Of a stretch of 39,859 bases of DNA, positions 2,061 to 26,492 are shown piece by piece. The stretch's first letter is position 1. The number at the start of each line of letters is the position of its first letter. The notes under the pieces are model-generated. The model had not been told where the DNA came from, ran no database searches, and was given only the letters and a program-made list of their open reading frames with translations. Both the position numbers and the translations under genes were made by a program. The DNA is from an uncultured Deferribacteres bacterium (GTDB lineage: Bacteria > Zhuqueibacterota > Zhuqueibacteria > Zhuqueibacterales > Geothermadaptataceae): assembly GCA_964014485.1 (NCBI GenBank), contig CAXHAT010000060.1:1-39859 (forward strand), in the 5' to 3' direction.

Positions 2061-2068
2061 GGCGACTC

Positions 2069-2614: not shown

Positions 2615-2626
2615 GACTGGCTCCGA

Positions 2627-4179: not shown

Positions 4180-4183
4180 AACC

Positions 4184-4547: not shown

Positions 4548-4850
4548 CTAAACAAAAACCGCGGGATCGTCCTGACGAGCAATTCGATCAGTCGCTTCGA
4601 TGCGCTTGCGGCAGGCTTCGCAGAGAAAGAAGTAGCGAACGCGGTCGCCTTTTTGGGTGTTGATCGATTGTTTGATTGTTTTCTTCATCGCCGCCAGTTG
4701 CGTCGGCGAAAGCAGGCATTCAAAGACGGAATATTGCACGCCGAGGCCGAATCGCTTCAATCGACGGTGCAGCTTCGTGCGGCGCTTGTCGTCGGAAATG
4801 TCATAAGCGACGATGACGAAAGTTTTGGCGCGGGAAGCGGAAGGTTTCAT
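4548..4850 (-). CDS. cas2: CRISPR-associated endonuclease Cas2
   Basis: VAYDISDDKRRTKL and VQYSVFEC motifs; ATGA overlap with cas1. Confidence 0.97.
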   Translation of the reverse strand: MKPSASRAKTFVIVAYDISDDKRRTKLHRRLKRFGLGVQYSVFECLLSPTQLAAMKKTIKQSINTQKGDRVRYFFLCEACRKRIEATDRIARQDDPAVFV

Positions 4851-5830: not shown

Positions 5831-5882
5831 ATTGAAGATTGAAGTTTGTGATTTGAAGTTTGGAGATTCCGGCTCGTCCCGG

Positions 5883-6773
5883 CTATGCGCTCGCCAGCCG
5901 CCACCGCCCGTTGCGCGTTTTGTTCAGCTTGAGCCATTCCCCCAGGTATTTGCAGCCCTTGCCGAGATGAAACAGCCGCGTCTTGTCGCGGTTGATTTCG
6001 AGCTTGAGGTTTTCAAGGACGGCGACGGCGGCGTCCAGCGCTTTTTCGGCTTCCTTGCGATCGGCGGCGAAAACGGCCACGTCGTCGCCGTAGCGTACGA
6101 AGCGCATCTCCTGCGCCCGGGCTCTGCCGTCAAACAAATCGAGATAAACGTTGGCGAGCAAGGGAGAGAGCGGGCTGCCCTGCAGCAGGCCTTTCGCCGA
6201 AGAGAATTGCCGCAGCCCGGAATTCGATTCGATGACGATTTCGGCGGCCAGCAGGCGTTTCAGCAGTTTTCGCAGCGCAAAATCCTTGACCCGCTTGTTC
6301 ACCGAGCGCCAAAGCAGCTTGACCGGCACGCTGCCGAAGCAGTCGCGCAAGTCGATTTTTACCAGCCAGGGCCGTCCGCCCAGCGCATGGTCGCGCGCTT
6401 GCGCCAAGGCGGTTTGCGGCGAACGTCCCGTGCGGTAGGCGTGGCTGTAATCGTCAAAGTGCGGCTCGAACAGCGGGATCAGAATTTGCGCCGCCGCGCG
6501 ATGCACGATGCGGTCCGTCACCGTGAGTACGCCGATCGGGCGCGGCGGCCCCACTTCGCGCTTCAGAAGTATTTTTTTGACCGGCTGCGGGCGATATTTG
6601 AAACTGCGCAAATCGCGCTGCAACGCCTTCAGCAGCAAAAACGACCGGCTTTCAAAATGGCTGATCGCCACGCCGTCCAGTCCGGCGGAATCGCCCCGCC
6701 GCCGAACCGCTCGCCAGGCGCGGTTCAGGTTCTCGTCTTCGCAGAGTTTTGCATAAAGCGGATAAAATAACAT
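5883..6773 (-). CDS. Stand-alone CRISPR-associated reverse transcriptase (group II intron-like RT domain)
   Basis: NLNRAWRAV..AGLDG (RT0), KIDLRDCFGSV, GLLQGSPLSPLLANVYL, RYGDD and KYLG motifs; no maturase/thumb extension; 52 bp upstream of cas1. Confidence 0.95.
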   Translation of the reverse strand: MLFYPLYAKLCEDENLNRAWRAVRRRGDSAGLDGVAISHFESRSFLLLKALQRDLRSFKYRPQPVKKILLKREVGPPRPIGVLTVTDRIVHRAAAQILIPLFEPHFDDYSHAYRTGRSPQTALAQARDHALGGRPWLVKIDLRDCFGSVPVKLLWRSVNKRVKDFALRKLLKRLLAAEIVIESNSGLRQFSSAKGLLQGSPLSPLLANVYLDLFDGRARAQEMRFVRYGDDVAVFAADRKEAEKALDAAVAVLENLKLEINRDKTRLFHLGKGCKYLGEWLKLNKTRNGRWRLASA

Positions 6774-6787: not shown

Positions 6788-7858
6788 TTAAACAAAGGCT
6801 TCATTTTCCGTGCGGCGCAGCGGTTTGCGCGGTCGAAAACGCATCATTTGCAGAAACCGCATTGTGAATTTAATCAGAGCCGGATAAAAAAAATCCTTCC
6901 ACAGTTGGTCGTCCGCTGCGTTCGCATGTGCGCGGCAGGCTTCGATCTGCAGACGATGGAAGCAGCGAACGCGCTTTAACTCTTTCTTTTCCCCCTGCGC
7001 TTCCAGGGCGATGAGCAAGTTCAGCAAAAACAACCTATGCCCTTCTTCATGAGGGTCAACGAAGCCGACAATCGCCGTCAGCATCGGGTATTTCACCGGT
7101 TCGGGACGATCCGTCATGCGTTCCGCCAGCCACGCGCCCCGAAACTTCACCACGCGCTTCGACGGCGCGGCATGGCCCGAAATACGAATAAAGCGCGCGA
7201 TGCGCTTGTCTTGCAGCGCTTCCGCCGCCTGCCGGGGATCAAGACGCATAAAGCTCGCCAGCAAGCCGAGAGGCAAGGGCGTTCCCGCCAGGCCGGTTTC
7301 GATCAGGATTTGCAGCAGCAGATCAAACTCCTTCGACCGGCGGCCGTTGTTAAAAACGCCTTGCGCAATCAGGTCGTCGGCCACCGAATCGCAGTACGCC
7401 GGATCTTCTTCCGGCACGTTAAAAACGTGAAAGTCCCCTTCGGCGCCCAACGACGCCAGTTCCTTTGCCGCGCAGGTCGCCGCAACCGCGTGGCCGGCTT
7501 CCAGCAGCGCTTTCGCTTGCGGCGCAAAATTGAGAAAGCGGCTCGCCCGCTTTAGCAAAACCAGTCCGGGAGAAGATTCGGGCGCCGCGCCCAAAACCGG
7601 GCGCGCAAGCGGTCTGGCAAAATAGACTGGCTCCTGCGGCCTCTCCGCGCGCGCAAGTCGCGCCAGGTTTTGCAAAAGCCGCAGCGCCGTACGTTCCGCC
7701 GAAGGCGCATAGACCAGCAGCAGCGGTTTTCCAAGGTGCGGAAGCCGCTCGAAAATTCGGTGCGCCGCGGTCAGGCCGTCCAGCGGATCCGGCGCTTCCA
7801 CGCCGTAAACTTCTTCGGGGATCAATTGGTCGCCTGTGAGTTTTGAAAGCGTCATCAT
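6788..7858 (-). CDS. Hypothetical protein, possibly an inactivated STAND-like NTPase with winged helix
   Basis: 356 aa; AGGAG RBS; degenerate Walker A-like LLLVYAPSAERT, Walker B-like GLVLLKRA, GxP-like GTPLPLGLLA, and FRGAWLAE. The CDS is likely; the family call is tentative. Confidence 0.55.
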   Translation of the reverse strand: MMTLSKLTGDQLIPEEVYGVEAPDPLDGLTAAHRIFERLPHLGKPLLLVYAPSAERTALRLLQNLARLARAERPQEPVYFARPLARPVLGAAPESSPGLVLLKRASRFLNFAPQAKALLEAGHAVAATCAAKELASLGAEGDFHVFNVPEEDPAYCDSVADDLIAQGVFNNGRRSKEFDLLLQILIETGLAGTPLPLGLLASFMRLDPRQAAEALQDKRIARFIRISGHAAPSKRVVKFRGAWLAERMTDRPEPVKYPMLTAIVGFVDPHEEGHRLFLLNLLIALEAQGEKKELKRVRCFHRLQIEACRAHANAADDQLWKDFFYPALIKFTMRFLQMMRFRPRKPLRRTENEAFV

Positions 7859-8364: not shown

Positions 8365-9180
8365 CTACCCGCAAACCAACAAAACCGTGTCCACCGTCGC
8401 CCAGCCTCTCAATTCCCGCTCGTCCAGATAATCTCGAAAAGTCTCCTTCAACGTCTTGATCCGCTTGGAAAGCGTGCCCGGCTTGATTTTGGGCGCGCAC
8501 TCCCGCAGCGTCTCCAAAATATTCTCCGGCGTATGGACGCCGTCAATTAAGAGCGCCCGCATCGTCAGCCAATGACAGGCGCATTGCCGAATTCTCGCCA
8601 TCTTACGGAAGTACGACAGAAAAACCGCCAGCGCCTGACGCACGCCCGGACGCATTCGGATCGTTTTGGCATAACCGCGCACCACTTCACGGGCCTGTTG
8701 AAATTCAGGCAGGCATTGCGGCCAGTTGAGCAAAGCTTCATGGTCTTGCTCGCTCAAAAAACTCTCCGGAACCGGCGTCTCGGCCTCCTCGCCAATTTCG
8801 AGCGTCTGGAAATCCATGTGCCGCGATTTTCGCTTGCTCAATCGCCGGTACAAGTCCACCCGCCGCGTACAAGCCAAACGCCGCAGCAGCCGCGCCAGAT
8901 TCGCGTCCGTAAAATCGTCTCGGAAAAAACGCGCCGGCTTCGCTTCAGCAACCATCAACAGTTTCTCCATCGCGGCCTGTCTAAAATCGGAAAAGTCAGA
9001 GTAGCCGAGACGATCCAGGCTCTGGTAATACAGCGGCCGCAGATGCGATTCCGCCCAGGGCAGAAAAGCGCCGTCCCGCCGCACGTACAGTCTGCGGATC
9101 GCGCTTCTGTCGCCCGCCTTGCTTTCCAGCCAGGCGGCGATGACGCGAACCTGCTTTTGAGAATGAATCGATGATGCCAT
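8365..9180 (-). CDS. Divergent ECF-type RNA polymerase sigma factor
   Basis: Start at 9180 with AAGGAGGT RBS (271 aa); AGDRSAIRRLY (region 1.2-like), DFRQAAMEKL (2.2), LLRRLACTRRVDLYRR (2.3/2.4), GTLSKRIKTLKETFRDYL (4.2). Confidence 0.7.
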   Translation of the reverse strand: MASSIHSQKQVRVIAAWLESKAGDRSAIRRLYVRRDGAFLPWAESHLRPLYYQSLDRLGYSDFSDFRQAAMEKLLMVAEAKPARFFRDDFTDANLARLLRRLACTRRVDLYRRLSKRKSRHMDFQTLEIGEEAETPVPESFLSEQDHEALLNWPQCLPEFQQAREVVRGYAKTIRMRPGVRQALAVFLSYFRKMARIRQCACHWLTMRALLIDGVHTPENILETLRECAPKIKPGTLSKRIKTLKETFRDYLDERELRGWATVDTVLLVCG

Positions 9181-9812
9181 GACTTGCACCTCCTTTCGCA
9201 GTTCATTTTTCGAGCATTTTTGTTGAAGTGTAAATCCTGTTCTCCTCTCCGGGCGCAATGGCGCCGGGGAACGCGGGCGCGGCCTGTTTTCGTCTAACGC
9301 ATACTGAGCGCTCTTTTTGACGCCGCGCCGTCCCCTGTTCTGCTCTTGAAAAATGAACGTTAAGGGCGGCTTTTCATAGTCGTCTATCGACCGTCGTAAA
9401 ACTCGTTCAAAATAGTATTTGATTTGCCTGTTGGCCAAACAGTCGTTTGGATTGAAAAAAATCGAATTGTTGATATGAAATGATCGGGTTTAAGGAAAGC
9501 GCTTGAGAGGTTTCGGCGCGGGGGTTGGCAATACGTTGGGAGTGTTTAAGCGGGGCGCTGCGATGCTTTTGAGCATGAGATCGCGAATCCAACAAGGGGC
9601 GTTCGCGCTTTCAATTCCCGCCAACGCCGCGTTCGCCGTGAAGTTCCCCAATTTTTTGAAAGCGCAAAAAGAATGACGGCGGAGCTTCCGGCGGTCTGCG
9701 GCAGACTTCCAAACGGCGAAGAAATGAAAAACGGAGCTATAAAACGCTTCACCTGCCGAACTCAGGTGACTTCTAGTCGTCCTCCGTTATCCGTCCCCCA
9801 TCCTCCGCCAGA

Positions 9813-11650
9813 GTCTCAATTCACCCTGTGATCTTCGGAAGGCTCACGCAGAGCGGAGAAAGGAAAAACGGAGAATGGAAAACGGAGAATGGAAAACGGA
9901 ATTCAAGCTGCCTGCAAACCCTTCGGCAAGTTCAAAACGTCCTCCGGTCTCCGTTCCTCCATCTTCCGCCCAAGTCTCAATTCACCCTGTGATCTTCGGT
10001 AGGCTTCCACTCAGCAGTTGAAACCCGTCCGTCTCGTTGAGAAGTTTCAATTCACCCTGTGATCTTCGGTAGGCTTCCACCAACTTGTAGACGTCTGCTT
10101 TCCCGCGCACCTGCGTTTCAATTCACCCTGTGATCTTCGGTAGGCTTCCACAAGTCTTCGGACTTCCGGGAGAATTGAACGGTTATGTTTCAATTCACCC
10201 TGTGATCTTCGGTAGGCTTCCACCCGATCAAGTATCTTGGATATGAGTTCGGCTCAGGTTTCAATTCACCCTGTGATCTTCGGTAGGCTTCCACGTAATA
10301 GAACGAGAGACGACTCTCGAGCTCATTGCGTTTCAATTCACCCTGTGATCTTCGGTAGGCTTCCACGGGAAACCAAACCCCTTTCGAGAACTGACTCTCT
10401 CCGTTTCAATTCACCCTGTGATCTTCGGTAGGCTTCCACTTTATCACGTCAAGCTCTACAAGAAAAAGGCCTATGTCTCAATTCACCCTGTGATCTTCGG
10501 TAGGCTTCCACTTGCATTCAGAGATAACGCGAACTTTGGATTTTGTCTCAATTCACCCTGTGATCTTCGGTAGGCTTCCACGAATCATGATTGAAGTCGC
10601 CGCAGGGATAATAGTGTCTCAATTCACCCTGTGATCTTCGGTAGGCTTCCACGAGTCCTTCTATGTACCTAAAAGGTGGTGATTGTAAGTCTCAATTCAC
10701 CCTGTGATCTTCGGTAGGCTTCCACACACAAGTACAGCCTTCTGCCGAGAAGATGGCGAGTCTCAATTCACCCTGTGATCTTCGGTAGGCTTCCACTGCT
10801 GCGACTTGCTGACGCTCTCCGGGGGCACAGTTTCAATTCACCCTGTGATCTTCGGTAGGCTTCCACTGAAACACTATGCGAACCCCTGGTAGGAATGCAT
10901 GTGTTTCAATTCACCCTGTGATCTTCGGTAGGCTTCCACCTTTTTCCAAAAATAATGATAGCCATGCTGGCTACGTTTCAATTCACCCTGTGATCTTCGG
11001 TAGGCTTCCACAAAAAAGGAATGTTCCGCAACAACACCCCCAAGAGTTTCAATTCACCCTGTGATCTTCGGTAGGCTTCCACCGGAAAAGGATTGCTCCG
11101 CAAATGCAACAAGCTCGTTTCAATTCACCCTGTGATCTTCGGTAGGCTTCCACTGGCAGGTTATTGTGCCAGATAGTTTACGCCGTTAGTTTCAATTCAC
11201 CCTGTGATCTTCGGTAGGCTTCCACTCTACCCAAGTTCCGAATCCGGAACTGTAGTCTAGTTTCAATTCACCCTGTGATCTTCGGTAGGCTTCCACCGGA
11301 TACTTTGAAAGTATTCCGGCTTACTGGTATGTTTCAATTCACCCTGTGATCTTCGGTAGGCTTCCACGAAGATACCCTCGCCTGACGTTGGGCGAGTGAT
11401 GTTTCAATTCACCCTGTGATCTTCGGTAGGCTTCCACAGCGATACAAAAGACGATGGGGTCATGTGTATGCGTTTCAATTCACCCTGTGATCTTCGGTAG
11501 GCTTCCACAAGGAGCAACAGAAAGTGAACCGCCTCTATCCTACGTTTCAATTCACCCTGTGATCTTCGGTAGGCTTCCACGGAAGTATGCGCACAGTCCG
11601 CGCAGTTCTGTACGTTTCAATTCACCCTGTGATCTTCGGTAGGCTTCCAC
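9813..11650 (-). CRISPR. CRISPR array: 24 intact 37-bp repeats (9974..11650), 23 spacers of 33-36 bp, and one degenerate trailer repeat at 9813 separated by a ~124-bp insert
   Basis: Repeat on minus is GTGGAAGCCTACCGAAGATCACAGGGTGAATTGA(A/G)AC. Orientation is inferred from the ATTGAAAC 3' end, the AT-rich leader on the right, the degenerate repeat on the left, and co-orientation with the cas genes. Confidence 0.99.
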
Positions 11651-12225: not shown

Positions 12226-12344
12226 CGCACTTTTTTGGCGTTTTTTCGAAATCAAATCAATTCCTTTAAAAACAAAATGTTGCCGCATTTTCAAAAATAA
12301 GCTTCGTTCCCGTACAACGTCGTTTTCGACCAAAAACAACAAAA

Positions 12345-12500
12345 AATGACGCCGCACCAATGACCAAAATGACAACCTGTGACACCGCACCAACGACGCA
12401 AAGCCAATGACAATGACAATGACAATGACAATGAACGACTCTAAAATGTCACGAAGCAAGTGACCAAAATGACAACCAATGACGCGAAGCCAATGACCAT
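12345..12500. repeat. Short tandem repeats (CAATGA)x5 and AATGAC variants downstream of cas6
   Basis: (CAATGA)5 at 12405..12434 plus dispersed AATGAC/GTGAC units. Confidence 0.85.
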
Positions 12501-12503
12501 TAC

Positions 12504-13346
12504 TCACCGCCGCCGCCGCGAAGGCGCAAACCGCGCCTGTCCCATCCCCAGCGCCGTGTGCGACCCGACGCCGGAAAAGAAGGCGAATTGCGCCAACAAG
12601 TGCAAGCAGAATCGATAGACTTCCGGCAGTGCCGGGTGTATGGCAAAACGCGCCGTGCCGATAAAGCCCGTGCGCCGCAGCCGGTCGTCATGCACGTAGC
12701 GCGTCTCAATTTTGGCGTAGGCCAGGTAAATGCTGTCGACAAAGTGCTGTATGTCTTCCAGCGGCAGTTCATGCGGACTGTTGGTCTGCCATTCGTTGAG
12801 CAGATAGCCAAAGACAAAGCGCGGCACGGGCAGCGGCAGGGACTGGTTGTTCTCAAAAAAACAGGTCGGCGAGCGGAAAAAGAGCGTCGCTTCTGGCGCC
12901 AGACCTTGCAGCTGCGCCAAAGCGTTCTGCGCATTTTCAATGATGTTGCCGAAACTGGAGATTGCGGCCCACTCGTGCTCTTCGGCGGTGCAATGCGCGG
13001 CATCCGGCAGCAGACTGGGCCGGGCGAGGCCGGGGCCGCATTGCTGTTCTTCTATCGCATGGCGCACGGCGTCGTTGAGCGCCGCTTGCACGCCGGTAAC
13101 ACGAAACCAGATCTTTTGCCCGGCCCGCAAGGTGATCCGGCCGCGGTCGTTGCGGAAGTCGCCGTCGAGGTTGGAGATGGTGTAGGGACGGCGGCGGTTT
13201 TTGTCATGCAGCTTGGCGGTGAGTCCAGGACTGGTCTGCTGCAGCCACTTGAGAAACGCAGCTTGCAGCATGCGCGCATTTTGAAACGGCAGCTCAGAGT
13301 CTCGCTCAGACGTCAACGTGAAAACGGTGGACAAGAGGTTGGACAT
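12504..13346 (-). CDS. cas6: CRISPR precrRNA processing endoribonuclease Cas6
   Basis: Start MSNLL at 13346; LHD..RRPYTIS, FRSPT.F, and G-rich loop FSGVGSHTALGMGQ. Confidence 0.95.
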   Translation of the reverse strand: MSNLLSTVFTLTSERDSELPFQNARMLQAAFLKWLQQTSPGLTAKLHDKNRRRPYTISNLDGDFRNDRGRITLRAGQKIWFRVTGVQAALNDAVRHAIEEQQCGPGLARPSLLPDAAHCTAEEHEWAAISSFGNIIENAQNALAQLQGLAPEATLFFRSPTCFFENNQSLPLPVPRFVFGYLLNEWQTNSPHELPLEDIQHFVDSIYLAYAKIETRYVHDDRLRRTGFIGTARFAIHPALPEVYRFCLHLLAQFAFFSGVGSHTALGMGQARFAPSRRRR

Positions 13347-13432: not shown

Positions 13433-15115
13433 TTAAAACGCTTCGGGCGTTCCGACGGCGGAACTGGCGCTGCGGTCTTGCCAGATAAATTGCAAAATCA
13501 GTCCGGCCAGCATGGCGAGCGGCGCAAAGGCCAGGTATTGCGCCAGGTTGACTTTGCCGAACGGGCCCATCAGAAAGCACTTCGTCTCAGGCTCATACGC
13601 CGCGGTGCTGAGCGCAACGGCTGCCAGGCCAACGCCGAGCGCGAGAATCACAACCATCGCCAACACCATCGCGGCGCGCCTGGCCGCTTCCCACTGGTTG
13701 ATGACAATGCGCTGAGCATCGATATAAAAATAGACTGCGCTGGCGACTATGGCAACGCCGGCCAGCAGCCAAAAGGGACCGCTGTTCGACCACTGCGGCA
13801 ACAGGTCATCGCCCCAGATCGCCTGCGCAATGTCGTTATCTTCGATTATGAGCACGAAATAGCCGGCGCCGATGCCACCGAGAATGCGCGGCAGCGCCAG
13901 GTGCGCGAGCAGTCCGAGGTCGAAACTTTTGACATAAATGATGACCATGCCCGCGAGAGCTATCCAGGGGACGAGTATTCTCTGGCTCTGGGAAGGGGCA
14001 ATGATATAGTTGAGCAAAATGGCGACGCCGAACGCCAGCAAGGGTCCGAAAAAGCTCCACAAGGGCTTGGGAGATCGAGCACGCGCGTGCGCTTGCGCAA
14101 ACGGCGTTTTTCGCTCGCGTTTCAGCATGGCGGCGAGATGCAGCGGCGTCACCAGATCGTAGCGCGGCACGAGCCAGTCGCGGATGAGGCGGTTGATGGC
14201 GGCGCGCTCTTGCTGGCGCTGAGATATCCAATTTTCATGTAGTTTGTTTACTAACGCAGGATGGAGCTTAATATTCGTCCAATCTACTCCGCTTTTGTTC
14301 GTCTCCCGAGAACCCAGCCGAATGCCCGGCGCTTCAAGCGGAATCCTAATGTTAATTGTCTGTGAAGTGGATTCTTCAGTTAGAATCATTGAAAGCCGTA
14401 GTCGTTCCGTCATGGGTAAATTGCTCCCAGCATCGAGCCATGAGCCAATGAGTTCTGCTCCGTAAGAAAAACGGTGATCGTCAAGTAGCTCTCTCAAAGC
14501 CCGATAGTTACTTTTGAACTCTTCACGGACGGGTTCTATTAGCTTATGATGTTTCCCAGATGCCTGAAAACGAAGATATATCTCTTTCACAATATTAAAT
14601 GCCTGCCAGCAAGTATAGAGATGAGCTGTGCGGGCATGTAGCATTTCGAACTTTTCATGTATGGTTAGGAATTCATGGAGTCCTTTATATGCCGTATAAG
14701 CAGCAAGAAAATTTTCCCACGGATTGATTGTTAGGTCTGAATCTTCAGTATAAAGGAAATTGTGGCCTCTCCGCAGAGATATAATTCGCCGATCATCAAA
14801 ACGAACTTGAAACTCGTGCATCAATTTTTCTTCAACGAATTTCTGTTCTAGTTTTGTAAGACCGTGTTGAAATATATTTACAGCTTCATGGGTAGGAAAA
14901 AAGGATTTTTCGGTTTCAATTCGGGGTAAAAACTCTCTGGCCTGACTAATGAACCTTTCATCACGTTGATTGACCGTGGTAAAACTGAACTGCCAGCAAG
15001 GACCGTTCGGTTTCCCATCTGAGTCAATTTCAGTTCTACTTTCTTCGAGTTCTTCCCATTCTGGTGAGCTTATCTCTTCTTCAACGCTCTCACTAAAGAA
15101 TTGGATTTTTATCAT
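13433..15115 (-). CDS. CRISPR-linked membrane protein: soluble N-terminal region plus about six C-terminal TM helices
   Basis: Likely start MIKIQFF at 15115, just after the CARF stop; six hydrophobic segments in the last ~200 aa; lies between the CARF gene and cas6. Confidence 0.8.
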   Translation of the reverse strand: MIKIQFFSESVEEEISSPEWEELEESRTEIDSDGKPNGPCWQFSFTTVNQRDERFISQAREFLPRIETEKSFFPTHEAVNIFQHGLTKLEQKFVEEKLMHEFQVRFDDRRIISLRRGHNFLYTEDSDLTINPWENFLAAYTAYKGLHEFLTIHEKFEMLHARTAHLYTCWQAFNIVKEIYLRFQASGKHHKLIEPVREEFKSNYRALRELLDDHRFSYGAELIGSWLDAGSNLPMTERLRLSMILTEESTSQTINIRIPLEAPGIRLGSRETNKSGVDWTNIKLHPALVNKLHENWISQRQQERAAINRLIRDWLVPRYDLVTPLHLAAMLKRERKTPFAQAHARARSPKPLWSFFGPLLAFGVAILLNYIIAPSQSQRILVPWIALAGMVIIYVKSFDLGLLAHLALPRILGGIGAGYFVLIIEDNDIAQAIWGDDLLPQWSNSGPFWLLAGVAIVASAVYFYIDAQRIVINQWEAARRAAMVLAMVVILALGVGLAAVALSTAAYEPETKCFLMGPFGKVNLAQYLAFAPLAMLAGLILQFIWQDRSASSAVGTPEAF

Positions 15116-15126
15116 AACGCTTTTTC

Positions 15127-15984
15127 TCAATATGAAGTGTGCGGCATTTGGAAACGTTTTTCCAAAGCTTTCCTGAACCATTCATTCTTGAGTTGTCCGC
15201 CGCTTTTTTTCTTTAGTTTCTTAAGGCTTTCTTGCCAATACTGCTTGCTCTTTTCTTCAGATGCATCAAATAGTGCCTCGTTGAGAACTTGAAGCTTGTC
15301 GGATTTTTCGAACAAATAACACATCTCGATCCCGAACACGAGAGAGAAAATTGTTAAGCAAGGGATAACTGCTTTATAGCCGCCTGTAATAACAAACAGA
15401 TTTTTTAACTTTGCCTTCTCAGCTATTTCAATCTCTTCCGATATCTGATCGGCGAGACCCCAAGTGACTTCATACGCTTCTGCTGGATTGTCATTGAGTC
15501 CAGGCACGATTTTCTTAGAAATCTGTAGACCTTTGACGCCTGCCCCGTTTATAAGCACCCAAGCAATGACTGCTGTGCTGTAAACACACTCTTGAGTTTC
15601 AGAGCTCAACAACATAATTTCATCTATCGCTGGTTCCCATAGCTTTTGGTCAGCCATCATGATAAGTGTGCTAATTTCCGCCCCAAAAAGGTTATCTTCT
15701 TTTCCAACATATCCCGCCATATTCTCCCACATTTTACTGGGATTATCCTTATGCTGCCATAGTGTATTGTCACAAAGTCTTTTTGTCAATTCTTTAAAAG
15801 ATGGCAAATTCTCACAGTTTTTGAACGCATGTTGATCCTCGAGTGGGGATTGTACTGGCTTGATCGAATTACCGACTTCTTTTGCCAAACGGCCAACGTT
15901 GAATTTCGTTTCGATGAGTTTCAATCGCTCTTCTTCAACTTGCGAAGTGCCACAGGTGACGATCAGGTTGTTCGGCATAGTCAC
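15127..15984 (-). CDS. CARF-domain protein, APE2256-like (putative cOA-binding protein or ring nuclease)
   Basis: LIVTCGTS, AEISTL, LLSSET, ITGGYKAVIP and YLFEKS motifs; no HEPN RxxxxH seen; coupled to the upstream cas7 stop. Confidence 0.85.
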   Translation of the reverse strand: MTMPNNLIVTCGTSQVEEERLKLIETKFNVGRLAKEVGNSIKPVQSPLEDQHAFKNCENLPSFKELTKRLCDNTLWQHKDNPSKMWENMAGYVGKEDNLFGAEISTLIMMADQKLWEPAIDEIMLLSSETQECVYSTAVIAWVLINGAGVKGLQISKKIVPGLNDNPAEAYEVTWGLADQISEEIEIAEKAKLKNLFVITGGYKAVIPCLTIFSLVFGIEMCYLFEKSDKLQVLNEALFDASEEKSKQYWQESLKKLKKKSGGQLKNEWFRKALEKRFQMPHTSY

Positions 15985-18002
15985 TGTCCCTTTTTCTTTT
16001 TGTATTTTTGTTTTTGATTCGCGCGAATCTCGTCCACACGCAGCAGTCGTTGACCCCAGCCGTAACCGCCGCCGCCGTCCCTGCTCTCAGAGCCGAACCA
16101 GGTATAGTGCAATTCCGAATAGTGGGTATCGTCTTTGTCTTTACCTGGGCTGCCGGGCGGGTAGGAAATGCGGACGGATTGCGCTTCGCCGGGCAGCGGC
16201 CGGTCGAGGTTGAGCATGGTGAGCAGGTCGTGCATGTGCGGGATATCACGCAGCCCTTTCTCCGGCTCTGTGAGTTGGTTCCACGCCTTCAACTGCTCGC
16301 GGAACGCATCGAGATAGTTTTTGAGCGCTTCGTTTTGTGGCGCGCTGAAATCGATGGCCGCAGCGTGGTCGCTGAAACTTTTGTTTTCACCGAGATCGAA
16401 GAGATTTTCATAGCGTCTGGCGCGGTCGATGAGGGTGACTTTTTGGGCGGTGATTTTCACCGAGCCGAGACCGAGGGGCTTGCCGCCCCCGAGATGGTGC
16501 GCCAGGTTGCCGTCTTCCGGTAAAGTAAGCGTCCAGAGCAGCATGCCGAGCTCCGTCTCGCTCAAATTTTCGAACTCGATGGTGAACTCGAACCGTGCGC
16601 CGGGTCTGACGACGTCGACGCTGGAATTGGTCCTGGTGGGCGTGCGTTGCTGGCCTCGGGGCGGCAGCTTTTGGAAATAGGCTTTCCGATTGCCGCCGTC
16701 TTGCCAGCGCGATGCGTGGTGCCAATAGAACTTACGCCCGCGCGCCGGGGTCGTGCGCAGCTTGCCGTTTTTCAGCTCGACGTACTCTTCCTTGGCGACA
16801 GACTTGTCGTCCCGGCGACCATCTTGAGGAAACAGATAGAAGCTGCGACAGGAGGGCTTGGGCGTATTCAGGGTTTTCAGGCATTCGATGCGCTCCTGCT
16901 CCCATTCCGAGATACAGGCGGCGGCGCCAAAAGCAACGCGTCCGGCGCGAGCGTTGACTTTTGCCTGATGCCGGCTGCGCTCGTCGCTCGTCTCTTGCGA
17001 CGCCATGCCGAGCAGGGCGCACACCGGGCAAAGATGGTCAGGCTCCGTGCAGGGATGGAAGGAATTGGGAATCGCGTCGCGCGGATTGTAAGACCACTTG
17101 AAGCGAAAATTGCGGCCAAATTGGATGATATAGTCTCTGCCGTCGATCTCGGTAGTGCGGAAAAACCAGTGCGGATTGTGCCAGTCTTTCGGGAATTTGC
17201 GATTGATCGAATGGTTACGATAGTTTTTCAGCCAGAGCGGCGTCGTCCGAGCAATGTAATCAGGCTGCATATCCTCCGGTTTTTTCGCCCCTTCTTCCGG
17301 GTTGTCTTTGTCCAGGAACGTGAAATTCTCATCTCCGATCATTTTGTGATAAAGCTCGGCGATCTCTTCGGGAATGCGTTCAGTGCCGCCTGCTCTTGGA
17401 TAGTTTGGCCGCGTGAAGTACGGCTTTCTGCTGCGACGCTCATTCTGGTTGAAGAGACCTATTCGTAAAAAATCAATGTGTTTGTTCGGGGCGTCGAATC
17501 GGTCAGCCCGCTCTCCTTTTCCAGCGACAGTTTTCCCAATCATCTTGCCCACAGCACGGTCTTTGATTGTGTGGCTGCGATTGTCCCGAAACACGGCCAT
17601 ATTCTCGGTCAACACGCTCATACAGGAATTGGTGGCGGCCTCCATGACCGAGCGGATGGCGCCTTTGATGGAGGCGCCGGGGATATACGGCTTGTCGTCA
17701 ATGAGCAGCAGCGGCTTGACCTTGTGCCCCTCCGGTTGTTCGTAGATTTTTTCTCCATCAGGAATGGCCAATGGCGTGAGCGTTTCAATTTCGCAGGTGA
17801 TGCGGCCGCTCAGGCCGGCGAAGTTTTCGTGCGAAGGCGGTTTGGCTTTGGGCGGCGGATTTCCCGACTCGAACGGCACGAAGTTGTAGGGATTGATGAA
17901 ATCTCCCTCAGGATATTTGTCCTTGTCGTTGCTCTTATTCGGGGCGCGGCCATATTGCTTGCGCCCCTTCCACTGTCCCTGGTGATGATGTTTTTTCGGC
18001 AT
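15981..18002 (-). CDS. cas7: Type III-D Cas7 RAMP with large insertion (TIGR03986-like)
   Basis: FINPYNFVP, IPGASIKGAIRSVMEA, CPVCALLG, RGRKFYWHH and LGGGKPLGLGSV motifs. Confidence 0.92.
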   Translation of the reverse strand: MPKKHHHQGQWKGRKQYGRAPNKSNDKDKYPEGDFINPYNFVPFESGNPPPKAKPPSHENFAGLSGRITCEIETLTPLAIPDGEKIYEQPEGHKVKPLLLIDDKPYIPGASIKGAIRSVMEAATNSCMSVLTENMAVFRDNRSHTIKDRAVGKMIGKTVAGKGERADRFDAPNKHIDFLRIGLFNQNERRSRKPYFTRPNYPRAGGTERIPEEIAELYHKMIGDENFTFLDKDNPEEGAKKPEDMQPDYIARTTPLWLKNYRNHSINRKFPKDWHNPHWFFRTTEIDGRDYIIQFGRNFRFKWSYNPRDAIPNSFHPCTEPDHLCPVCALLGMASQETSDERSRHQAKVNARAGRVAFGAAACISEWEQERIECLKTLNTPKPSCRSFYLFPQDGRRDDKSVAKEEYVELKNGKLRTTPARGRKFYWHHASRWQDGGNRKAYFQKLPPRGQQRTPTRTNSSVDVVRPGARFEFTIEFENLSETELGMLLWTLTLPEDGNLAHHLGGGKPLGLGSVKITAQKVTLIDRARRYENLFDLGENKSFSDHAAAIDFSAPQNEALKNYLDAFREQLKAWNQLTEPEKGLRDIPHMHDLLTMLNLDRPLPGEAQSVRISYPPGSPGKDKDDTHYSELHYTWFGSESRDGGGGYGWGQRLLRVDEIRANQKQKYKKKKGQ

Positions 18003-18021: not shown

Positions 18022-18588
18022 TTAGTTTTTGCGCACCGCGCTCAGGCCGCAACGTCTGGCGGCGACCGTTTGCCCGGCGGCATCGACATACTCCAGAACC
18101 TCGAGACAAGCTGCATCGTATTCGCGTTCGACGCCGCCGATCTCAGGCGGGACGGGGTAATGCATCTCTTGCGGGATTCGCAATTCCACCCAAGCGTCAC
18201 GCTCTTCGATATATTCGGTTCCCCACAGAACAAAGGTTCGCTTTTTCGGGCCGTCATGTGCTCGTATGCATTCATCTTTTTCAAAATGCCACGTTTCGTC
18301 GAGATCGCCGAAGACGCCGGCGCTGGTGAGAACGAGCCAGAACTGCTCGCCCACACGTCGCCAATGCACCTCAGCCGTTTTGTTCCAGACGCTCCCGCTC
18401 AGGCAGGACCAGCTTTTGGTTTTCAGATTGGCGAGAATGTCGCTGAAATGCGTCAATTGCGCAGCCTCGTCCCACCATTCGACTTCGGCGTGCTCGAATT
18501 GCACGCTGGCGTGCAGTTTTTCCAGCACATCCGCGAGCTCGGCCACGCCTACCGGCGTGCGCGACCAGAGATGGAGTTGGTCCGGCAT
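18022..18588 (-). CDS. csx19: Csx19-like type III-D subunit
   Basis: Position between cas7x2 and cas7-insertion; LWG...ELRIP...YP and C-terminal LEVLEYVD..G...ARRCGL pattern; start MPDQ at 18588 with AGGAG RBS. Confidence 0.7.
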   Translation of the reverse strand: MPDQLHLWSRTPVGVAELADVLEKLHASVQFEHAEVEWWDEAAQLTHFSDILANLKTKSWSCLSGSVWNKTAEVHWRRVGEQFWLVLTSAGVFGDLDETWHFEKDECIRAHDGPKKRTFVLWGTEYIEERDAWVELRIPQEMHYPVPPEIGGVEREYDAACLEVLEYVDAAGQTVAARRCGLSAVRKN

Positions 18589-18695
18589 ACTTTTTCTCCT
18601 TTGTTTGTAGTCCATGCTTTAGCATGCTTTTGAGTTCAAGTATGTAACAAGTTCGCGACATTGGGCTTCAGCCTGAACTCCGAACCCATTCAACA

Positions 18696-20720
18696 TCAGG
18701 CCCGCCGTCCATAAAAGACGCTCGGTTTTGCTTCGCAATCCAATTGTTCCATGAAGGCTGCGTGGCAGTCTGCAATCAATTTTGCGGTAGGCGTTTCTTC
18801 GTCAGGCGGCGCAGTCGACCATCTCGCCGCTCCAAAAAGCTCGTGCAATGGCAAGAAAAACAGGCTGTAGGGAATGGCCTTCGGGCTTTCCGCGGCCGCG
18901 AATCCATACTTGCTGAACATGTCGTGCAATTGCGAGCCTTGCAGCAACAGGGCGAAAGCGCCGTCCAAAGCTTCGCCGTCCGGTTCTTTTACCCAGGCGC
19001 GCATTTTACCGTAGCCGCGCCGCGTGGCGTGGCCGATGCGCATGTCGCCGTTGTGCAGGTCTTTCAGCACTAACGCGAGCAAGCCGAGCATCCACGCTTC
19101 CGGGCGCTCGAGGTGCAGGCGGAGCGCAAAGAGCGGCGCCTTGTTTTCCGCGGGCATGAGCGGCCGGGCGTCGTACTTTTTCGCTTCCGCGGCGCCGCCG
19201 GCAAAGCGGTCGATGGCGACATGGTCGAAGAGCTTTGTCCGCACCACATTCTCATTGATCAGATGGCCTTCACCGGCAAACAGGCGTCCGCGCATCATGC
19301 TGTTGCCAAACAGGCGGCAGGCCATACAGGAGCGCTCGTAAACCTCCCACGCCTGCATTTTCTCTGCCTCTCGCTGCTCTTTCGATTTGGCAAAGCAGCC
19401 GCCGAGAGTGTCGTCATTTCCTGTGCGCTTGCGGGTGACAGCGCAGGCGCAAATACGTTTTTTATACTCGACTTCGTCGCCGTGCGCCTGATGAAAATTG
19501 AGCGTGCGGATGATCTTTTCGGCGCGCGTGCGCAAAATGCCTTTAAGCGACGAACCGGGCAGGAAATAACATTCGCGGCCGCCAGCGAGCAGCGTGCGCA
19601 CAAACGGTTTATCGGAAGGGTATGAAACGTCGAAATCGGGCAGGCTGGCGGCGACGACGGCCGGCTCGAGAAAAGCGACCGTAAGGTCGATAAAGAGATG
19701 CTGCGGCAGAAAGTGCTGCGGCTCTTCCGGCGTCGCCTTGTGAATAGTTGTTGGCACGTCAGTCAGACAGGCATCGAGTTCAGCGCGGGTTTTGAATGCC
19801 TGTTCCGGCAGATCATCGAAGCCGTTTACTCGCAGCCACGCCGATTTCGGATCGTCTTCATTTTCATCGATTTCTTCGTCTGATGAGTCGTTCACCTCGC
19901 TGTCCGATGGCGCTTCCGTTTCAGCGATTTCATCATCTGATGATTCGTTCGCCTCATTTTTGGGCGGCGATTCGGTCTCTTCGCTTGTTTCTCCACCATC
20001 GCTTGCTTCGGCTTCCGCTACCGAGGTCAGGCTCAAGTAATGGCGGAGAATGTCGTCGTTTTCGAAATTCAGCAGATAAAAACGCAGCGAATCCTGGATG
20101 ATTTTGGCCTGTCCCAACCCGGTGGTGACGCGGCCGCCCAAGTGAAAGCCGGTGGCCTGCCAGAGATCGAGCACGGCGAGCATCAATTGCAAATCGATTG
20201 CTTTCGGCGACTCGATGGTGATTTCGAAATGAAAGCGGCTGTCACCCGGCGCCACTTCGCGATCGAATTGCAGGTTTGGTTCCGCCGCGCCGGTCTCGCG
20301 GCTGATGCCGACATGGTCGCGGACTTCGGTTGCGAAGCCTTCGGCGGCATCGCTTTTTCGATCATCGTTCGGCAGCAGAAGCGCATCTTCGACAAACAGG
20401 CGCGAGGCTTGGCCGCCGCGGTCGGCTTCCTGGTCTTTCGGGCCGCGACCGAACAGCGCGCAGACCGGGCAGCCTTCGTCCTTTCGATCATCACAGGCTT
20501 CATACCCGGTCAAAAAACGGCACAGTTCTTCGGCAACTGAGCGCAACAGGCCGGCCAGAGAAGAGCCGGGGATATAAGGCTCGCCGCCGGCCGTGCGGCT
20601 GATGGCCATCTCCGAGATGCGGCTGGCCGTGCCGCTGCCGAGGTGGAATGCCGCCGACGCCGTGATCTCGCCGCGCGCAACCCAGCGGTCGACCTTGCCC
20701 GATGATACGATATTATTCAT
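18696..20720 (-). CDS. cas7: Tandem Cas7-Cas7 (Csm3x2) RAMP fusion with acidic linker
   Basis: Two RAMP units: IPGSSLAGLLR/CPVCALFG/LGGRVTTGLG and LPGSSLKGILR/CMACRLFG/DHVAIDRF/IGHATRRGYG. Confidence 0.92.
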   Translation of the reverse strand: MNNIVSSGKVDRWVARGEITASAAFHLGSGTASRISEMAISRTAGGEPYIPGSSLAGLLRSVAEELCRFLTGYEACDDRKDEGCPVCALFGRGPKDQEADRGGQASRLFVEDALLLPNDDRKSDAAEGFATEVRDHVGISRETGAAEPNLQFDREVAPGDSRFHFEITIESPKAIDLQLMLAVLDLWQATGFHLGGRVTTGLGQAKIIQDSLRFYLLNFENDDILRHYLSLTSVAEAEASDGGETSEETESPPKNEANESSDDEIAETEAPSDSEVNDSSDEEIDENEDDPKSAWLRVNGFDDLPEQAFKTRAELDACLTDVPTTIHKATPEEPQHFLPQHLFIDLTVAFLEPAVVAASLPDFDVSYPSDKPFVRTLLAGGRECYFLPGSSLKGILRTRAEKIIRTLNFHQAHGDEVEYKKRICACAVTRKRTGNDDTLGGCFAKSKEQREAEKMQAWEVYERSCMACRLFGNSMMRGRLFAGEGHLINENVVRTKLFDHVAIDRFAGGAAEAKKYDARPLMPAENKAPLFALRLHLERPEAWMLGLLALVLKDLHNGDMRIGHATRRGYGKMRAWVKEPDGEALDGAFALLLQGSQLHDMFSKYGFAAAESPKAIPYSLFFLPLHELFGAARWSTAPPDEETPTAKLIADCHAAFMEQLDCEAKPSVFYGRRA

Positions 20721-21264
20721 TGCGCAGCCTCCAGATAATTCGTGCGATCAGCTCGCGCAGCGCGGCTTTGAGCAAGCGATCTTCGAAGCTCTCGAAAACT
20801 ATGTCTTCGCGATCCGCGGCTTCTTCCAGCTCCGAATCCAATTTATCCATCTCTTCCTGTCGGATTGTCAAGCGTTTCCACGATTTGGAGTTGGCGATCA
20901 CGCTGCGAGCGAAGCGTATGGCTTCTTCGGCGGGCGATTCTTGCGGGGCTTCACACCATTTCAAAAACGTGGCGGCCAGTTTTTGCGTGTTGGCGCGTTT
21001 CCGGCCTTCTTCGACCTTCAAAAATCCCTTCCAGGTTTGCAGGTTGTCGTCGCGCAGAAATATATTTTCGAACAGGCGGGCGCTGTGCCCGATACGGGTT
21101 TTGCTTTTGTCCAGAAAGTTCTTCGCTTCCGCTCCTGCCAGGTGATCGAGCTTTTCCTGGATTTCCCGCAGAAGCAGGTCGAGCGCCAGTTGGCCATCCG
21201 GTTCCCACCCCTTAGTGAGACGGAGGAGCGGGCGAAAAAAATCACTGATTTCAAAAGTATTCAT
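20713..21264 (-). CDS. cas11: Probable small subunit Cas11 (Csm2-like)
   Basis: 183 aa helical protein; ATGA overlap with the cas5 stop; position after cas5 mirrors the Cas7-Cas5-Cas11 order of III-D variants. The call is mainly positional. Confidence 0.6.
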   Translation of the reverse strand: MNTFEISDFFRPLLRLTKGWEPDGQLALDLLLREIQEKLDHLAGAEAKNFLDKSKTRIGHSARLFENIFLRDDNLQTWKGFLKVEEGRKRANTQKLAATFLKWCEAPQESPAEEAIRFARSVIANSKSWKRLTIRQEEMDKLDSELEEAADREDIVFESFEDRLLKAALRELIARIIWRLRNE

Positions 21265-22382
21265 AAGGCGATCCCCGGCTGTTGGTTTTCGAACATGGCC
21301 ATGTGCAGTGGCGCCGAAAAGGTGATTTGCCCGAAGCCTTCTTCGCGACGCAGTCCGGCGCCGTTCTGAGCCAGCCCCTGCATCCACTGCGTGATTTCGT
21401 CTTCATCCCCGTCTTTGAAATGGAGCAAAGCAGTCGATCCCATGCTGATGGCGATGTCGTCGGGCTTGAACATTTTGCCGACGCCGCTCCAGCCAGCGAC
21501 TTTGCGCCATGTGGCGAAGCTGTTTTCGACTTCAACCGTGATGGCCGTCGGGAGCCCCAAAGCGCAGTGCAACGTCTGATTATCGATGCAGGTTATCGGT
21601 CGCAGCAGACGGTCGATGAGGATGGCGTCGGAAGCGAAAGTCATCGCGGCCCAGCGTTTTTCTTTACTTTGCCAAGCGTGTAATTCCGGCGTCTCCACGG
21701 GCCGATTGAAGCTGTCGAAATCGAAGTCGGCTTTGCCGCTGCGCCTTTTGCCAATGAAACCGGCAATTCTTCCATTGAACAGCTTGATCAGCTCGGCGGC
21801 GCGGCCATCATCGCTGGCAAGCGTTCCCTGGAACTGCTCGCCAGCAGGAATTTCCGATTGCACGAATAGCGCGCCTTCCCTGGGAGCGCCGCTTTGCGTA
21901 ACGGAGGTGCGCATTCGCAAGGCCCGGGACGTCGGATGGCTTTTCAGGTCGTGGGCCGGGCCAGTATAAAAGCGCAACTCGTGGTCGACGAGGGCGTGGC
22001 CGCATTGCTCATGCTCGCAGCGGCGCTCGTTCGCATTCGAGTCCGCTTCGAAGAGCAAATCAACAACGCCGTGCGGCGGCGCTAACAGAGCGGATGTATC
22101 GTTCCTAAACCCCGGAAAGCGTTTGCACGTAAAAGCGGAAAGCGACAGCGGCCGGGAAATGTCCAGGTAGAAATTGGAAAAACGGACGCCGCCGGGCCCG
22201 AAAAATCTTCGGAATTCTTCTGATTCTGCCGACCGGCCGGATGCGAGATAGCAACCGGCAAGCGCGCCGCGAACCGTCGAGCCGGGAATGTAGCCTGAAG
22301 AAAAAACTTCGTTGCCGAGCGCCGGCGTCTCGCTGAGGCAAGCCGGAGTTCGCAATAGCAGCCTTACACCACGCAGCATCAT
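21261..22382 (-). CDS. cas5: Cas5-group RAMP (Csx10-like)
   Basis: YIPGSTVRGALA, VRFSNFY, VAGWS..., MGS and GAGLRREEGFGQI motifs; start at 22382 with GGAGG RBS and ATGA overlap. Confidence 0.85.
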   Translation of the reverse strand: MMLRGVRLLLRTPACLSETPALGNEVFSSGYIPGSTVRGALAGCYLASGRSAESEEFRRFFGPGGVRFSNFYLDISRPLSLSAFTCKRFPGFRNDTSALLAPPHGVVDLLFEADSNANERRCEHEQCGHALVDHELRFYTGPAHDLKSHPTSRALRMRTSVTQSGAPREGALFVQSEIPAGEQFQGTLASDDGRAAELIKLFNGRIAGFIGKRRSGKADFDFDSFNRPVETPELHAWQSKEKRWAAMTFASDAILIDRLLRPITCIDNQTLHCALGLPTAITVEVENSFATWRKVAGWSGVGKMFKPDDIAISMGSTALLHFKDGDEDEITQWMQGLAQNGAGLRREEGFGQITFSAPLHMAMFENQQPGIAL

Positions 22383-23131
22383 AATGTTCCTCCCAACCAA
22401 TTTGTTAGAGCATCTAATGCCGCTTGGTTCCCATTATTCTCGCCGTCTTTCCTGAACTCGAAGCGGCAGCGCCCGCGTCCGCGCCGACGTCCGCCGCCGA
22501 GCCGACAGGTAAAAAGCAACGAGGCCGCTAACCAGGCCCGAGAATCCTGGTTATTCGCGACTGACCGTATCGGCTGCATGCATTCGATACTGCCATATAA
22601 GTCTGCTGCAGGCGCGACGACTTCGGTGCTGAAGAGATGATGAGCTTGGGCGCGCCGCGTCCGCGGATCGATGGAAGCCTGCGCCCGGCTGCGGCTGTCT
22701 CGGAACTCCAACTCGGCGCTTTTGGTATTGTCGCGATAGCGGCCAGCATACTCGGCCGGTGAAAACCAAAGTGACGCGGGCAGCAGCGGCGAGCCGAAAA
22801 GAGCGCAAATCAGGCAGACGGTCTGAGCGCTGTTGCTACAATACTCGGTAGGAGACTCTTTTTCTTTGTCGCCTAGGAAAAAGTATTTCTGGCCCTGACA
22901 GATAAGTTTATCAATATGTTCATCATCTCGACAGCGATATTCGATGAGTTGACGGCAACTTTCCCGCACCAATCCTTTGATTTCGCTGCCGGGCACATAC
23001 GCGAAGTCTTCGTGATCGCGCACGACCATCTCATCCAAAACGCCGGGCACGCCGACGCCGCTGCCGATCTGAAAATCTCCCCAGATCCGCAGCGAATAGG
23101 CGATGGGCTTGAAGCCGGAATGTGTGTTCAT
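22379..23131 (-). CDS. cas7: Cas7 (Csm3-like) RAMP
   Basis: IGSG..GVLDEMVVRD, YVPGSEIKGLVR, CLICALFGS and LGGGRRRGRG motifs. Confidence 0.92.
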   Translation of the reverse strand: MNTHSGFKPIAYSLRIWGDFQIGSGVGVPGVLDEMVVRDHEDFAYVPGSEIKGLVRESCRQLIEYRCRDDEHIDKLICQGQKYFFLGDKEKESPTEYCSNSAQTVCLICALFGSPLLPASLWFSPAEYAGRYRDNTKSAELEFRDSRSRAQASIDPRTRRAQAHHLFSTEVVAPAADLYGSIECMQPIRSVANNQDSRAWLAASLLFTCRLGGGRRRGRGRCRFEFRKDGENNGNQAALDALTNWLGGTL

Positions 23132-26445: not shown

Positions 26446-26492
26446 CCAGGCAACAAGTTCGTCCCGGATTTCAGGCGCAACCCAGCAGCCGT

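Follow-up and report, generated by a model that had tools for sequence, protein, structure and literature searches.

The stretch of DNA analysed here (the window: 39,859 nucleotides, contig CAXHAT010000060.1 of assembly GCA_964014485.1, from an uncultured Deferribacteres bacterium placed by GTDB in the Zhuqueibacterota) carries a type III-D CRISPR locus in which two minus-strand open reading frames (ORFs), one for a CARF protein and one for a membrane protein with six predicted transmembrane helices, lie between the last effector gene and cas6. In the ORF list of the window they occupy 15127–15984 and 13433–15181, respectively, exactly the interval singled out by a first-pass annotation made from the sequence alone. 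The two genes are a conserved, CRISPR-linked pair, probably the membrane output of such loci, and, among the known effector families searched for, they are the only candidate output in the genome. From its layout and gene context the pair is a well-supported candidate member of a named but uncharacterised class, that of the Cam3-type membrane proteins, which stand as unexplained ancillary genes of type III systems. What is new here is that the partner CARF protein is RelE-less and, in its structure model, ring-nuclease-like over its full length; that III-D loci carry the pair as well, in some cases within the effector operon; that CARF7 proteins with a fused output and the membrane partner were not met together in the searched genomes of the window's phylum; and that a foreign composition is common to the sensor gene and the part of the membrane gene that encodes the soluble domain. 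The locus provides a clean test case, since it has an HD-less Cas10 with GGDD, is the only type III locus of a 97%-complete genome and has two accessory genes. If sensor and effector are truly split between these, the arrangement would be a new way of wiring cyclic oligoadenylate (cOA) signalling to the membrane.

The Cas10 of the locus was described in the first-pass annotation as keeping GGDD and lacking an HD domain, and this description holds. GGDD occupies residues 297–300, the sole ‘HD’ dipeptide is at residue 238, and no HD-domain match is obtained with either Pfam or PADLOC profiles, the only Pfam match being Cas10-Cmr2_palm2. The protein opens at once with the palm region, the PADLOC Cas10 profile is matched from end to end, and there is no room for an HD domain. 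Equally, the claim that no Csx1/Csm6, Can1/2, SAVED, NucC or CorA gene is recognisable in the window is borne out by the ORFs of at least about 100 residues (39 scanned with Pfam, 22 with PADLOC), none of which belongs to the Csx1/Csm6, Can/Card1, SAVED, NucC or CorA families. Besides the cas genes, the CARF protein and a match to the profile Mem_01, PADLOC finds only Cas2 in the window. The same annotation had suggested a search for trans-acting effectors in the rest of the genome, for which an assembly of 465 contigs is available. The whole genome, window included, has one Cas10 match, one PF09651 match and a single type III locus. There is no match in the genome to Csx1_HEPN, Card1_endonuc, Cas_Cas02710, PADLOC Csx1 or CARF_2M, for all five of which control genomes were positive; there is likewise none to SAVED, Csm6_HEPN or DUF6602 (the last of which we take to be NucC), these being weak negatives as the controls were silent for all three. 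Moreover, tblastn of the genome with Can2-like, Card1-like and CARF-RelE proteins from related loci returned only the own motif of the window's CARF protein.

The CARF protein matches PF09651 (Cas_APE2256) and nothing else in Pfam, in agreement with its earlier description as an APE2256-like CARF protein with no evident nuclease domain. Among PADLOC profiles CARF_RelE matches best (E 1.2e-25), with only positions 3–174 of 294 matched; the C-terminus comprises 46 residues past the CARF match and forms two helices. An alignment of 22 relatives, of 264–310 residues, has TCGTSQ, GAE..T, GG.K, E224 and S226 as invariant features, and the window protein keeps all 17 invariant positions. TCGTSQ is encoded at 15940–15957 and contains S12, while the lysine motif, here GGYK, is encoded at 15373–15387 and contains K202, both residues being invariant in 22 of 22 relatives. 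PF09651 is the sole family in every one of these relatives at E ≤ 0.1, and a RelE/ParE family is found in none of the 22.

A structure model of the CARF protein (pLDDT, the predicted score of the local distance difference test, 86.8; predicted template-modelling score, pTM, 0.88) was compared with solved structures using VIA-align. Cami1 (8PHB) aligns with Z 20.1 over 226 residues and is also the best sequence match (E 1.2e-12); Cami1 (8PHB, 8PHJ) and the window protein have a CARF7-type domain and the TCGTS and GGFKS motifs in common. The alignment takes in chain residues 2–263 of 372, however, and where Cami1 continues the window protein ends in its two helices, with no RelE fold. The RelE domain was looked for and is lacking, and the window partner is therefore not a Cami1. 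The Crn1-type proteins Sis0811 and Sso1393 (7PQ2, 3QYF) are similar in size and align with Z 17.2–17.6 over 226–230 residues, from chain residue 1 to 271 of ca 275 and across model residues 1–280, which amounts to a full-length fold match (Z 17.5, 228 of 275 residues), although their sequence similarity to the window protein is marginal (E 0.08–0.12). Sso2081 and Sis0455 also match, at Z 11–12. In a HMMER profile-to-sequence alignment the family lysine, K202, falls on K169 of Sis0811, a residue named in 7PQA, which together with 7PQ6 is a mutant entry naming the Ser/Lys residues; the equivalence of S12 is taken from the N-terminal structural alignment only. We know of no obligate membrane partner described for Sis0811 or Sso1393. 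On its model, the window protein is a CARF7 protein (a label used here after PADLOC profile names and the CARF7 passages of PMC12409355), comparable to Cami1 minus RelE and of the same extent as a Crn1-type ring nuclease. By the titles of their structure entries, Cami1, Sis0811 and Sso2081 are proteins of cyclic tetra-adenylate (cA4) and, since they are the closest structures, cA4 is by analogy the likely ligand of the CARF protein. A Can2/Card1-type nuclease, found beside the pair in three of 14 related loci, also favours cA4.

For the membrane gene the likeliest start is the ATG at 15115, 11 nt past the CARF stop codon, and its product matches no Pfam family, CorA included. Hydropathy gives six hydrophobic segments within the last ca 210 residues, and the AlphaFold2 model, made from a family alignment of 73 rows (pLDDT 81.2, pTM 0.84), has a helical soluble part at residues 75–345 followed by six transmembrane helices at 353–546, residues 1–70 being poorly predicted; both support the earlier reading of a protein of about 560 residues with six C-terminal transmembrane helices next to cas6. 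The segment ahead of the first transmembrane helix contains 12 lysines and arginines as opposed to 4 aspartates and glutamates, and by this excess the soluble domain should be cytoplasmic. The PADLOC defence-system profile Mem_01 (PDLC01155), which bears the same description (a 6TM membrane protein with an N-terminal globular domain), matches weakly and in the transmembrane part only (E 1.3e-4, 19.3 bits; residues 291–550 against profile positions 196–427 of 440). Of 73 relatives 19 match it at E ≤ 1e-3, and of the proteins of 14 loci eight do so at E ≤ 0.01; the family is at best a distant branch of a superfamily shared with Mem_01.

A word-index search for homologues of the membrane protein returned only the protein itself. 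An exhaustive search gave 94 cluster representatives, itself included, at E ≤ 1e-3, of which 68 are found at ≤ 1e-10 and 17 at ≤ 1e-30; these are mostly of 500–650 residues, with alignments that begin near residue 135 and run to the C-terminal end. In the 73-row alignment on which family conservation is based, Y319, P409, R410, G414 and R480 are invariant, all five being kept in the window protein, and W170, Q171, Y462, G496, P532, G538, Q542, E546 and W555 are nearly so, as is K177, which like W170 and Q171 is in the soluble domain. Otherwise the soluble domain is poorly conserved, with a mean frequency of the commonest residue of 0.14 for residues 1–74 and 0.24 for 75–130. The conserved tail of the family reads QFIFEE..TASVW.PE (window 13433–13495), and Q546 and G555 of the window protein fall within it. 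Fold searches, made with the whole membrane model and not with its transmembrane and soluble domains apart, gave a best E of 0.38 with Foldseek and, over 48,161 chains, a best Z of 7.1 with VIA-align, to generic helical repeats and below the caution line for helical proteins; the ESM Atlas returned one cluster at 0.82, below the threshold for a lead, and structure rows with template-modelling scores below 0.3. The Csm6 entry 6TUG came up as a PDB match to the family profile at E 0.25 and was set aside as noise. A tblastn search for the membrane protein on plasmids gave no match.

The linkage of the two genes was traced in the loci of relatives, for which the 16 closest alignment rows were used; the 73-row alignment has no stretch conserved enough for such a search. 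The loci come from species-representative genomes (L003–L006), metagenomes (L007–L017) and the window's phylum (L026–L030, of which L020–L024 are short forms). Seven were dropped for missing upstream DNA, namely L005 and L030 at a contig start, L014–L017 with at most 2.1 kb and L025 as a fragment of 29 positions. In 14 of the 15 assessable loci the membrane gene has a homologue of the window's CARF protein encoded in the next upstream ORF, with phmmer E values from 3e-32 to 6e-17 in L003, L004 and L006–L013 and a homologue likewise present in L026, L027, L028 and L029. The exception, L033 (6213–7820), is the weakest match (E 4e-10), partial, apparently frameshifted and outside any CRISPR locus; its membrane relative sits behind genes for an AAA+/sigma-54-type ATPase and a HATPase_c protein, a weak lead that distant members of the membrane family may take other upstream partners outside CRISPR loci. 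Nine of the loci are III-D (L003, L004, L006, L007, L008, L013, L026, L027 and L029), four are III-B with Cmr2–Cmr6 (L009–L012) and L028 is untyped. The gap from the CARF gene to the membrane gene is 2–23 nt in most of them. The effector operon itself contains the pair in L004 and L006, with csx19 on one side and the last cas7 on the other; cas6 directly follows the pair in four loci, as it does in the window, and in L008 one gene intervenes. The membrane family is itself rare, being found in seven of 167 genomes from the phylum to which the window belongs and in two of 401 sampled Chloroflexota genomes. Pairwise identities of the CARF and membrane proteins correlate (r 0.72–0.74, a value reached by 2–4 of 5000 Mantel permutations), a co-divergence which would be expected anyway of co-inherited neighbours.

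Several features of these loci may be recorded alongside. L011, L026 and L028 have reverse transcriptase and cas1 genes next to the pair, and L030 has a reverse transcriptase gene alone. The membrane proteins of L026, L027 and L029, which sit behind the CARF gene in III-D loci, are shorter (408–435 residues), lack ca 150 N-terminal residues and match Mem_01 more strongly (E 5e-9 to 2e-5). In L003 a pentapeptide-repeat protein of 458 residues (4512–5888) follows the pair, and after the last cas7 there is an ORF of 433 residues in L004 (13739–15040) and one of 462 residues in L006 (13860–15248), both family-less.

The distribution of CARF7 proteins in the window's phylum also bears on the pair. 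The CARF profile, which matches other CARF7 architectures as well, finds 11 of the 167 genomes. In two of these (G000 and G144) a RelE-less CARF gene is next to a membrane gene; in the other nine, one of which (G162) is flagged as unpublished, there is no match to the membrane family. Four CARF proteins of those nine genomes were scanned with PADLOC profiles, and three of the four extend past the CARF part onto profiles of fused domains: that of L036 spans positions 1–339 of a CARF7 CARF_RelE profile of 356 positions, and those of L038 and L042 follow CARF_DUF2103 nearly to its end (about positions 9–335 of 340). The fourth, L044, of 279 residues, reaches only positions 1–275 of 359. The divergent CARF proteins of G062, G103 and G125, which are beside the shorter membrane proteins, were missed at the genome-wide threshold. 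In other words, CARF7 proteins with a fused output and the membrane partner were not seen together in the searched genomes of the phylum, a pattern drawn from few and related genomes.

Composition shows a sharp break inside the pair. In the long ORFs of the genome the mean GC content at third codon positions (GC3) is 0.584 (standard deviation 0.056, first percentile 0.419) and the other cas genes have values of 0.60–0.76. The CARF gene is at 0.44, and the membrane gene at 0.362 over codons 1–298 and 0.741 over codons 299–560. For the change point at codon 298 (ca 14221) the log-likelihood ratio is 41.6, a value that none of 2000 permutations reaches; the point lies 50–65 nt before the VPRYD codons, the most conserved motif on the soluble side of the family. 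The other edge of the block, at ca 15952, falls where the last cas7 meets the CARF gene. From these values we infer that the low-GC3 block is foreign and that the sensor gene and the soluble domain were jointly replaced through recombination with a homologous module of lower GC. A search for a donor singled out none of the relatives, all of them ca 30% identical, and the correlation between the similarities of the N-terminal and C-terminal halves is weak (Spearman 0.22, p 0.086). Among public sequencing runs, no RNA run is listed with the stretch, while three DNA runs of one study contain it, in short contigs identical to the window. An X1 contig (14171–15193) extends 50 nt past the GC3 change point, and another (15790–16477) crosses the other junction. 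The run whose contigs cross both junctions may be the sample of origin, and the identical junction contigs are therefore no independent support; nor are depth differences between contigs interpretable.

Cam3 is described by Hoikkala, Graham & White (2024; PMC11229360), in the passages devoted to it, as a helix-rich soluble domain followed by six transmembrane helices and of ‘enigmatic’ function, with a poorly conserved soluble part. It is reported there from 12 loci, all III-B, where its gene is always directly downstream of one annotated as Cami1. In a full-text search, this was the only paper in which Cam3 turned up in the context of type III CRISPR. The window protein resembles Cam3 in having soluble helices and then six transmembrane helices (as judged from its model and hydropathy, the comparison being one of descriptions and not of sequences), in a gene directly downstream of a Cami1-type CARF gene, both in the window and in 14 of 15 relatives' loci, in having four relatives in III-B loci, and in having no informative fold match and a poorly conserved soluble part. 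It differs in that the window and nine related loci are III-D, III-B being a finding on 12 loci and not a definition, and in that the window partner is RelE-less, a point on which the Cam3 passages of PMC11229360 are silent for Cam3 partners.

With Cam1, Csx23 and CorA the pair would share the principle that a Cas10 signal acts on a membrane protein to stop growth. In those proteins, however, sensor and transmembrane parts are in one polypeptide, while in the window a stop codon and 11 nt lie between their two frames; moreover, the Cam1-like profile CARF_2M matches nothing in the genome. III-D2 systems make S-adenosylmethionine-AMP (SAM-AMP) for a CorA effector, according to the part of a 2026 report that deals with them (PMC13294483), from which the window differs by its Csx19, its double Cas7 and its insertion-bearing Cas7. 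Since the window carries a CARF protein, cOA stays the expected signal, not SAM-AMP.

The working of the pair that we put forward, tentatively and as a nearly balanced question, is that of a cA4-controlled two-protein membrane effector, in which the CARF protein relays the binding of cA4 to the membrane protein. Binding of target RNA would switch on the cyclase of the HD-less Cas10 through its GGDD site and give rise to cOA, most likely cA4. This would be bound by the standalone CARF7 protein, presumably as a dimer, and the cA4-bound form would act on the six-helix protein at its helical domain in the cytoplasm, and this protein would then perturb the membrane, by leak or depolarisation, and halt the growth of the infected cell. 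Ring-nuclease chemistry of the CARF protein would subsequently remove cA4 and reset the system. In this scheme the nature of the ligand, an interaction of the two proteins and the action on the membrane are inferred. In its favour count the pairing in 14 of 15 assessable loci and across two subtypes, the want of an output domain on the CARF protein, the complementary distribution of fused CARF7 proteins and the membrane family in the phylum, the lack of any other effector of the searched families in the genome, the low GC3 shared by sensor gene and soluble domain, and the co-divergence of the two proteins. It is also conceivable, if somewhat doubtful, that the pair is the first split effector of type III systems, in which a free-standing CARF protein gates a separate membrane protein in trans, sensor and soluble domain form one cassette, and the Cam3-type protein replaces the RelE, DUF2103 or HD domains which other CARF7 proteins carry in cis. 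In this regard, the low GC3 common to the CARF gene and codons 1–298 of the membrane gene looks as if the sensor and the soluble domain had been exchanged together.

Several points weigh against the two-protein effector. According to PMC11229360, known membrane effectors such as Csx23, CorA and Cam1 are themselves sensors of the signal. A fused protein of CARF and six transmembrane helices was not found, none of 93 family representatives matching the CARF profile and a search for longer proteins giving none, which is weak evidence. No experiments on any family member came to light, the literature search finding only the 2024 description. A Can2/Card1-type nuclease is beside the pair in three of 14 loci (L006, L007 and L008), and the pair is thus not always the sole output. 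At positions 546 and 555 the window protein departs from the E and W kept in 93% and 94% of 73 relatives, respectively, with Q and G instead, and these changes may have altered its activity. Lastly, the full-length likeness of the CARF protein to standalone ring nucleases, with the Lys and Ser kept, means that it could be only an off-switch.

This last point leads to the main rival, which we consider rather unlikely, namely that the membrane protein is self-contained, its own soluble domain binding the Cas10 product, with the CARF protein as a dedicated ring nuclease that would be retained beside it since an effector harmful to the membrane calls for an off-switch. The strongest point in its favour is the end-to-end match of the CARF model with Sis0811 and Sso1393, to which may be added the matches with Sso2081 and Sis0455, the alignment of K202 with K169 of Sis0811 and the Ser at position 12, within TCGTSQ. 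On the membrane side, W170, Q171 and K177 could line a pocket in the soluble domain, and domains other than CARF bind the signal in Csx23 and CorA. Cam1 is beside ring nucleases in 81% of loci by the co-occurrence figures of PMC12409355; yet by the same figures effectors are paired with ring nucleases at rates of 30–81%, below the 14 of 15 found here. The soluble domain is, moreover, poorly conserved over most of its length and has no fold match to nucleotide-binding domains, and the low-GC3 block joins the CARF gene to that domain and not to the entire membrane gene, all of which argues against a sensor within the membrane protein.

It is improbable, in our estimation, that neither protein is an effector, the CARF protein being a ring nuclease or regulator and the membrane protein an anchor, or a carrier of the signal or its breakdown products, while immunity would come from RNA cleavage by Cas7 or from an unrecognised effector. 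Membrane anchoring has been proposed for such proteins in a 2018 preprint (10.1101/270033), several ORFs of the window are family-less, and three of 14 related loci have a Can2/Card1 nuclease. Set against this are the genome, which has a single type III locus and no other effector among the families searched for, the conservation of the pair across two subtypes and the oddity of a cyclase-active, HD-less Cas10 and a cOA-binding CARF protein with no output. Still less probable, and by a long way the least credible of these explanations, is a recent recombinant which is non-functional, that is, a decaying or mismatched chimera. A GC3 change point inside a gene, the replacements at 546 and 555 and an IS3-family transposase directly upstream of cas10 would all suit it; both frames are nevertheless open and of full length, the junction is in frame, the five invariant positions of the membrane protein and the 17 of the CARF protein are kept, and the array has 24 repeats.

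The first-pass annotation had named the CARF and six-helix proteins as the only candidate outputs and had noted a layout recalling Cam3. The CRISPR linkage of the six-helix gene in 14 of 15 assessable loci and the want of an effector of the searched families elsewhere in the genome speak for the former, and the published Cam3 layout and gene context, together with the III-B relatives, for the latter. Effectors of known kinds encoded elsewhere, which were to count against that annotation, did not turn up among the families searched. Its overall interpretation is supported in part, the ring-nuclease-like fold of the CARF protein included; Cam3 is a candidate homologue, and a two-component effector and a sensor in the soluble N-terminus are both candidate mechanisms.

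The operon, the features of which are collected in Table 1, runs in the order Cas10, Cas7, Csx10, an ORF of 224 residues, double Cas7, Csx19, TIGR03986 Cas7, CARF protein, membrane protein, cas6 and array. Its assignment to subtype III-D follows from Csx19, which is above the cut-off of TIGR03984, the TIGR03986 RAMP protein, Csx10 and the double Cas7. The reverse complement of the array repeat ends in ATTGAAAC, which we take to be a type III tag giving the reading direction; on this assumption the array would read from the minus strand, as the cas genes do.

Table 1. Features of the type III-D locus in the window, with the matches that identify them.
Feature	Positions	Strand	Evidence and remarks
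CARF7-type protein, no effector domain (on its model)	15127–15984	−	PF09651, E 7.6e-15; ORF of 285 residues (GTG start), product of 283 residues from 15978
Membrane protein, Cam3-like and Mem_01-related	13433–15181	−	ORF of 582 residues; likely ATG at 15115, giving 560 residues
Helical soluble domain of membrane protein, predicted cytoplasmic (residues 75–345)	14081–14893	−	W170, Q171, K177 conserved; VPRYD at 14156–14170
Six predicted transmembrane helices of membrane protein (residues 353–546)	13478–14059	−	P409, R410, G414, R480 invariant
Low-GC3 block: entire CARF gene and membrane-gene codons 1–298	14221–15952	−	GC3 change points
Cas7 with insertion (TIGR03986 RAMP)	15981–18002	−	E 3.6e-91; 307 bits against cut-off of 161
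Csx19	18022–18615	−	TIGR03984, 37.3 bits against cut-off of 35
Double Cas7 (Cas7-2x)	18696–20720	−	RAMPs in two stretches, E 2.1e-39; Csx7, 143 bits
ORF of 224 residues, putative small subunit (by position only)	20713–21387	−	Matches no family
Csx10 (Cas5 of type III-D)	21261–22400	−	TIGR02674, E 8.6e-22, under curated cut-off
Cas7	22379–23131	−	RAMPs, E 8.4e-19
Cas10, 545 residues, HD-less	23144–24781	−	PADLOC Cas10, E 1.7e-57, whole profile; GGDD at 23882–23893
cas6	12504–13346	−	PF10040, E 7.3e-16; likely start ATG 13346
CRISPR array, 24 repeats of 37 nt (≤ 3 mismatches)	9974–11650	−	Degenerate copies further on, near 9813–9850

Beyond the array there is an adaptation module of separate genes for Cas2 (4548–4850), Cas1 (4847–5830) and a reverse transcriptase (5883–6773), and between this module and the array are two ORFs (6788–7858 and 8365–9438) with no Pfam or PADLOC family. 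The interval between cas6 and the array contains, at 12301–12567, short imperfect repeats of AATGAC type, presumably a leader region; in the three public runs the word depth of the contigs over this interval is 200–650, compared with ca 2–10 beside it, as for a high-copy simple repeat. The IS3-family transposase genes directly upstream of cas10 (HTH_Tnp_1 and rve) are at 25537–26798. At the other end of the window, positions 1–4500 carry plus-strand ORFs with no Pfam or PADLOC family, among them one of 532 residues (2090–3688), and their composition is strongly skewed, with a GC skew of +0.12 and an AT skew of −0.15 to −0.19.

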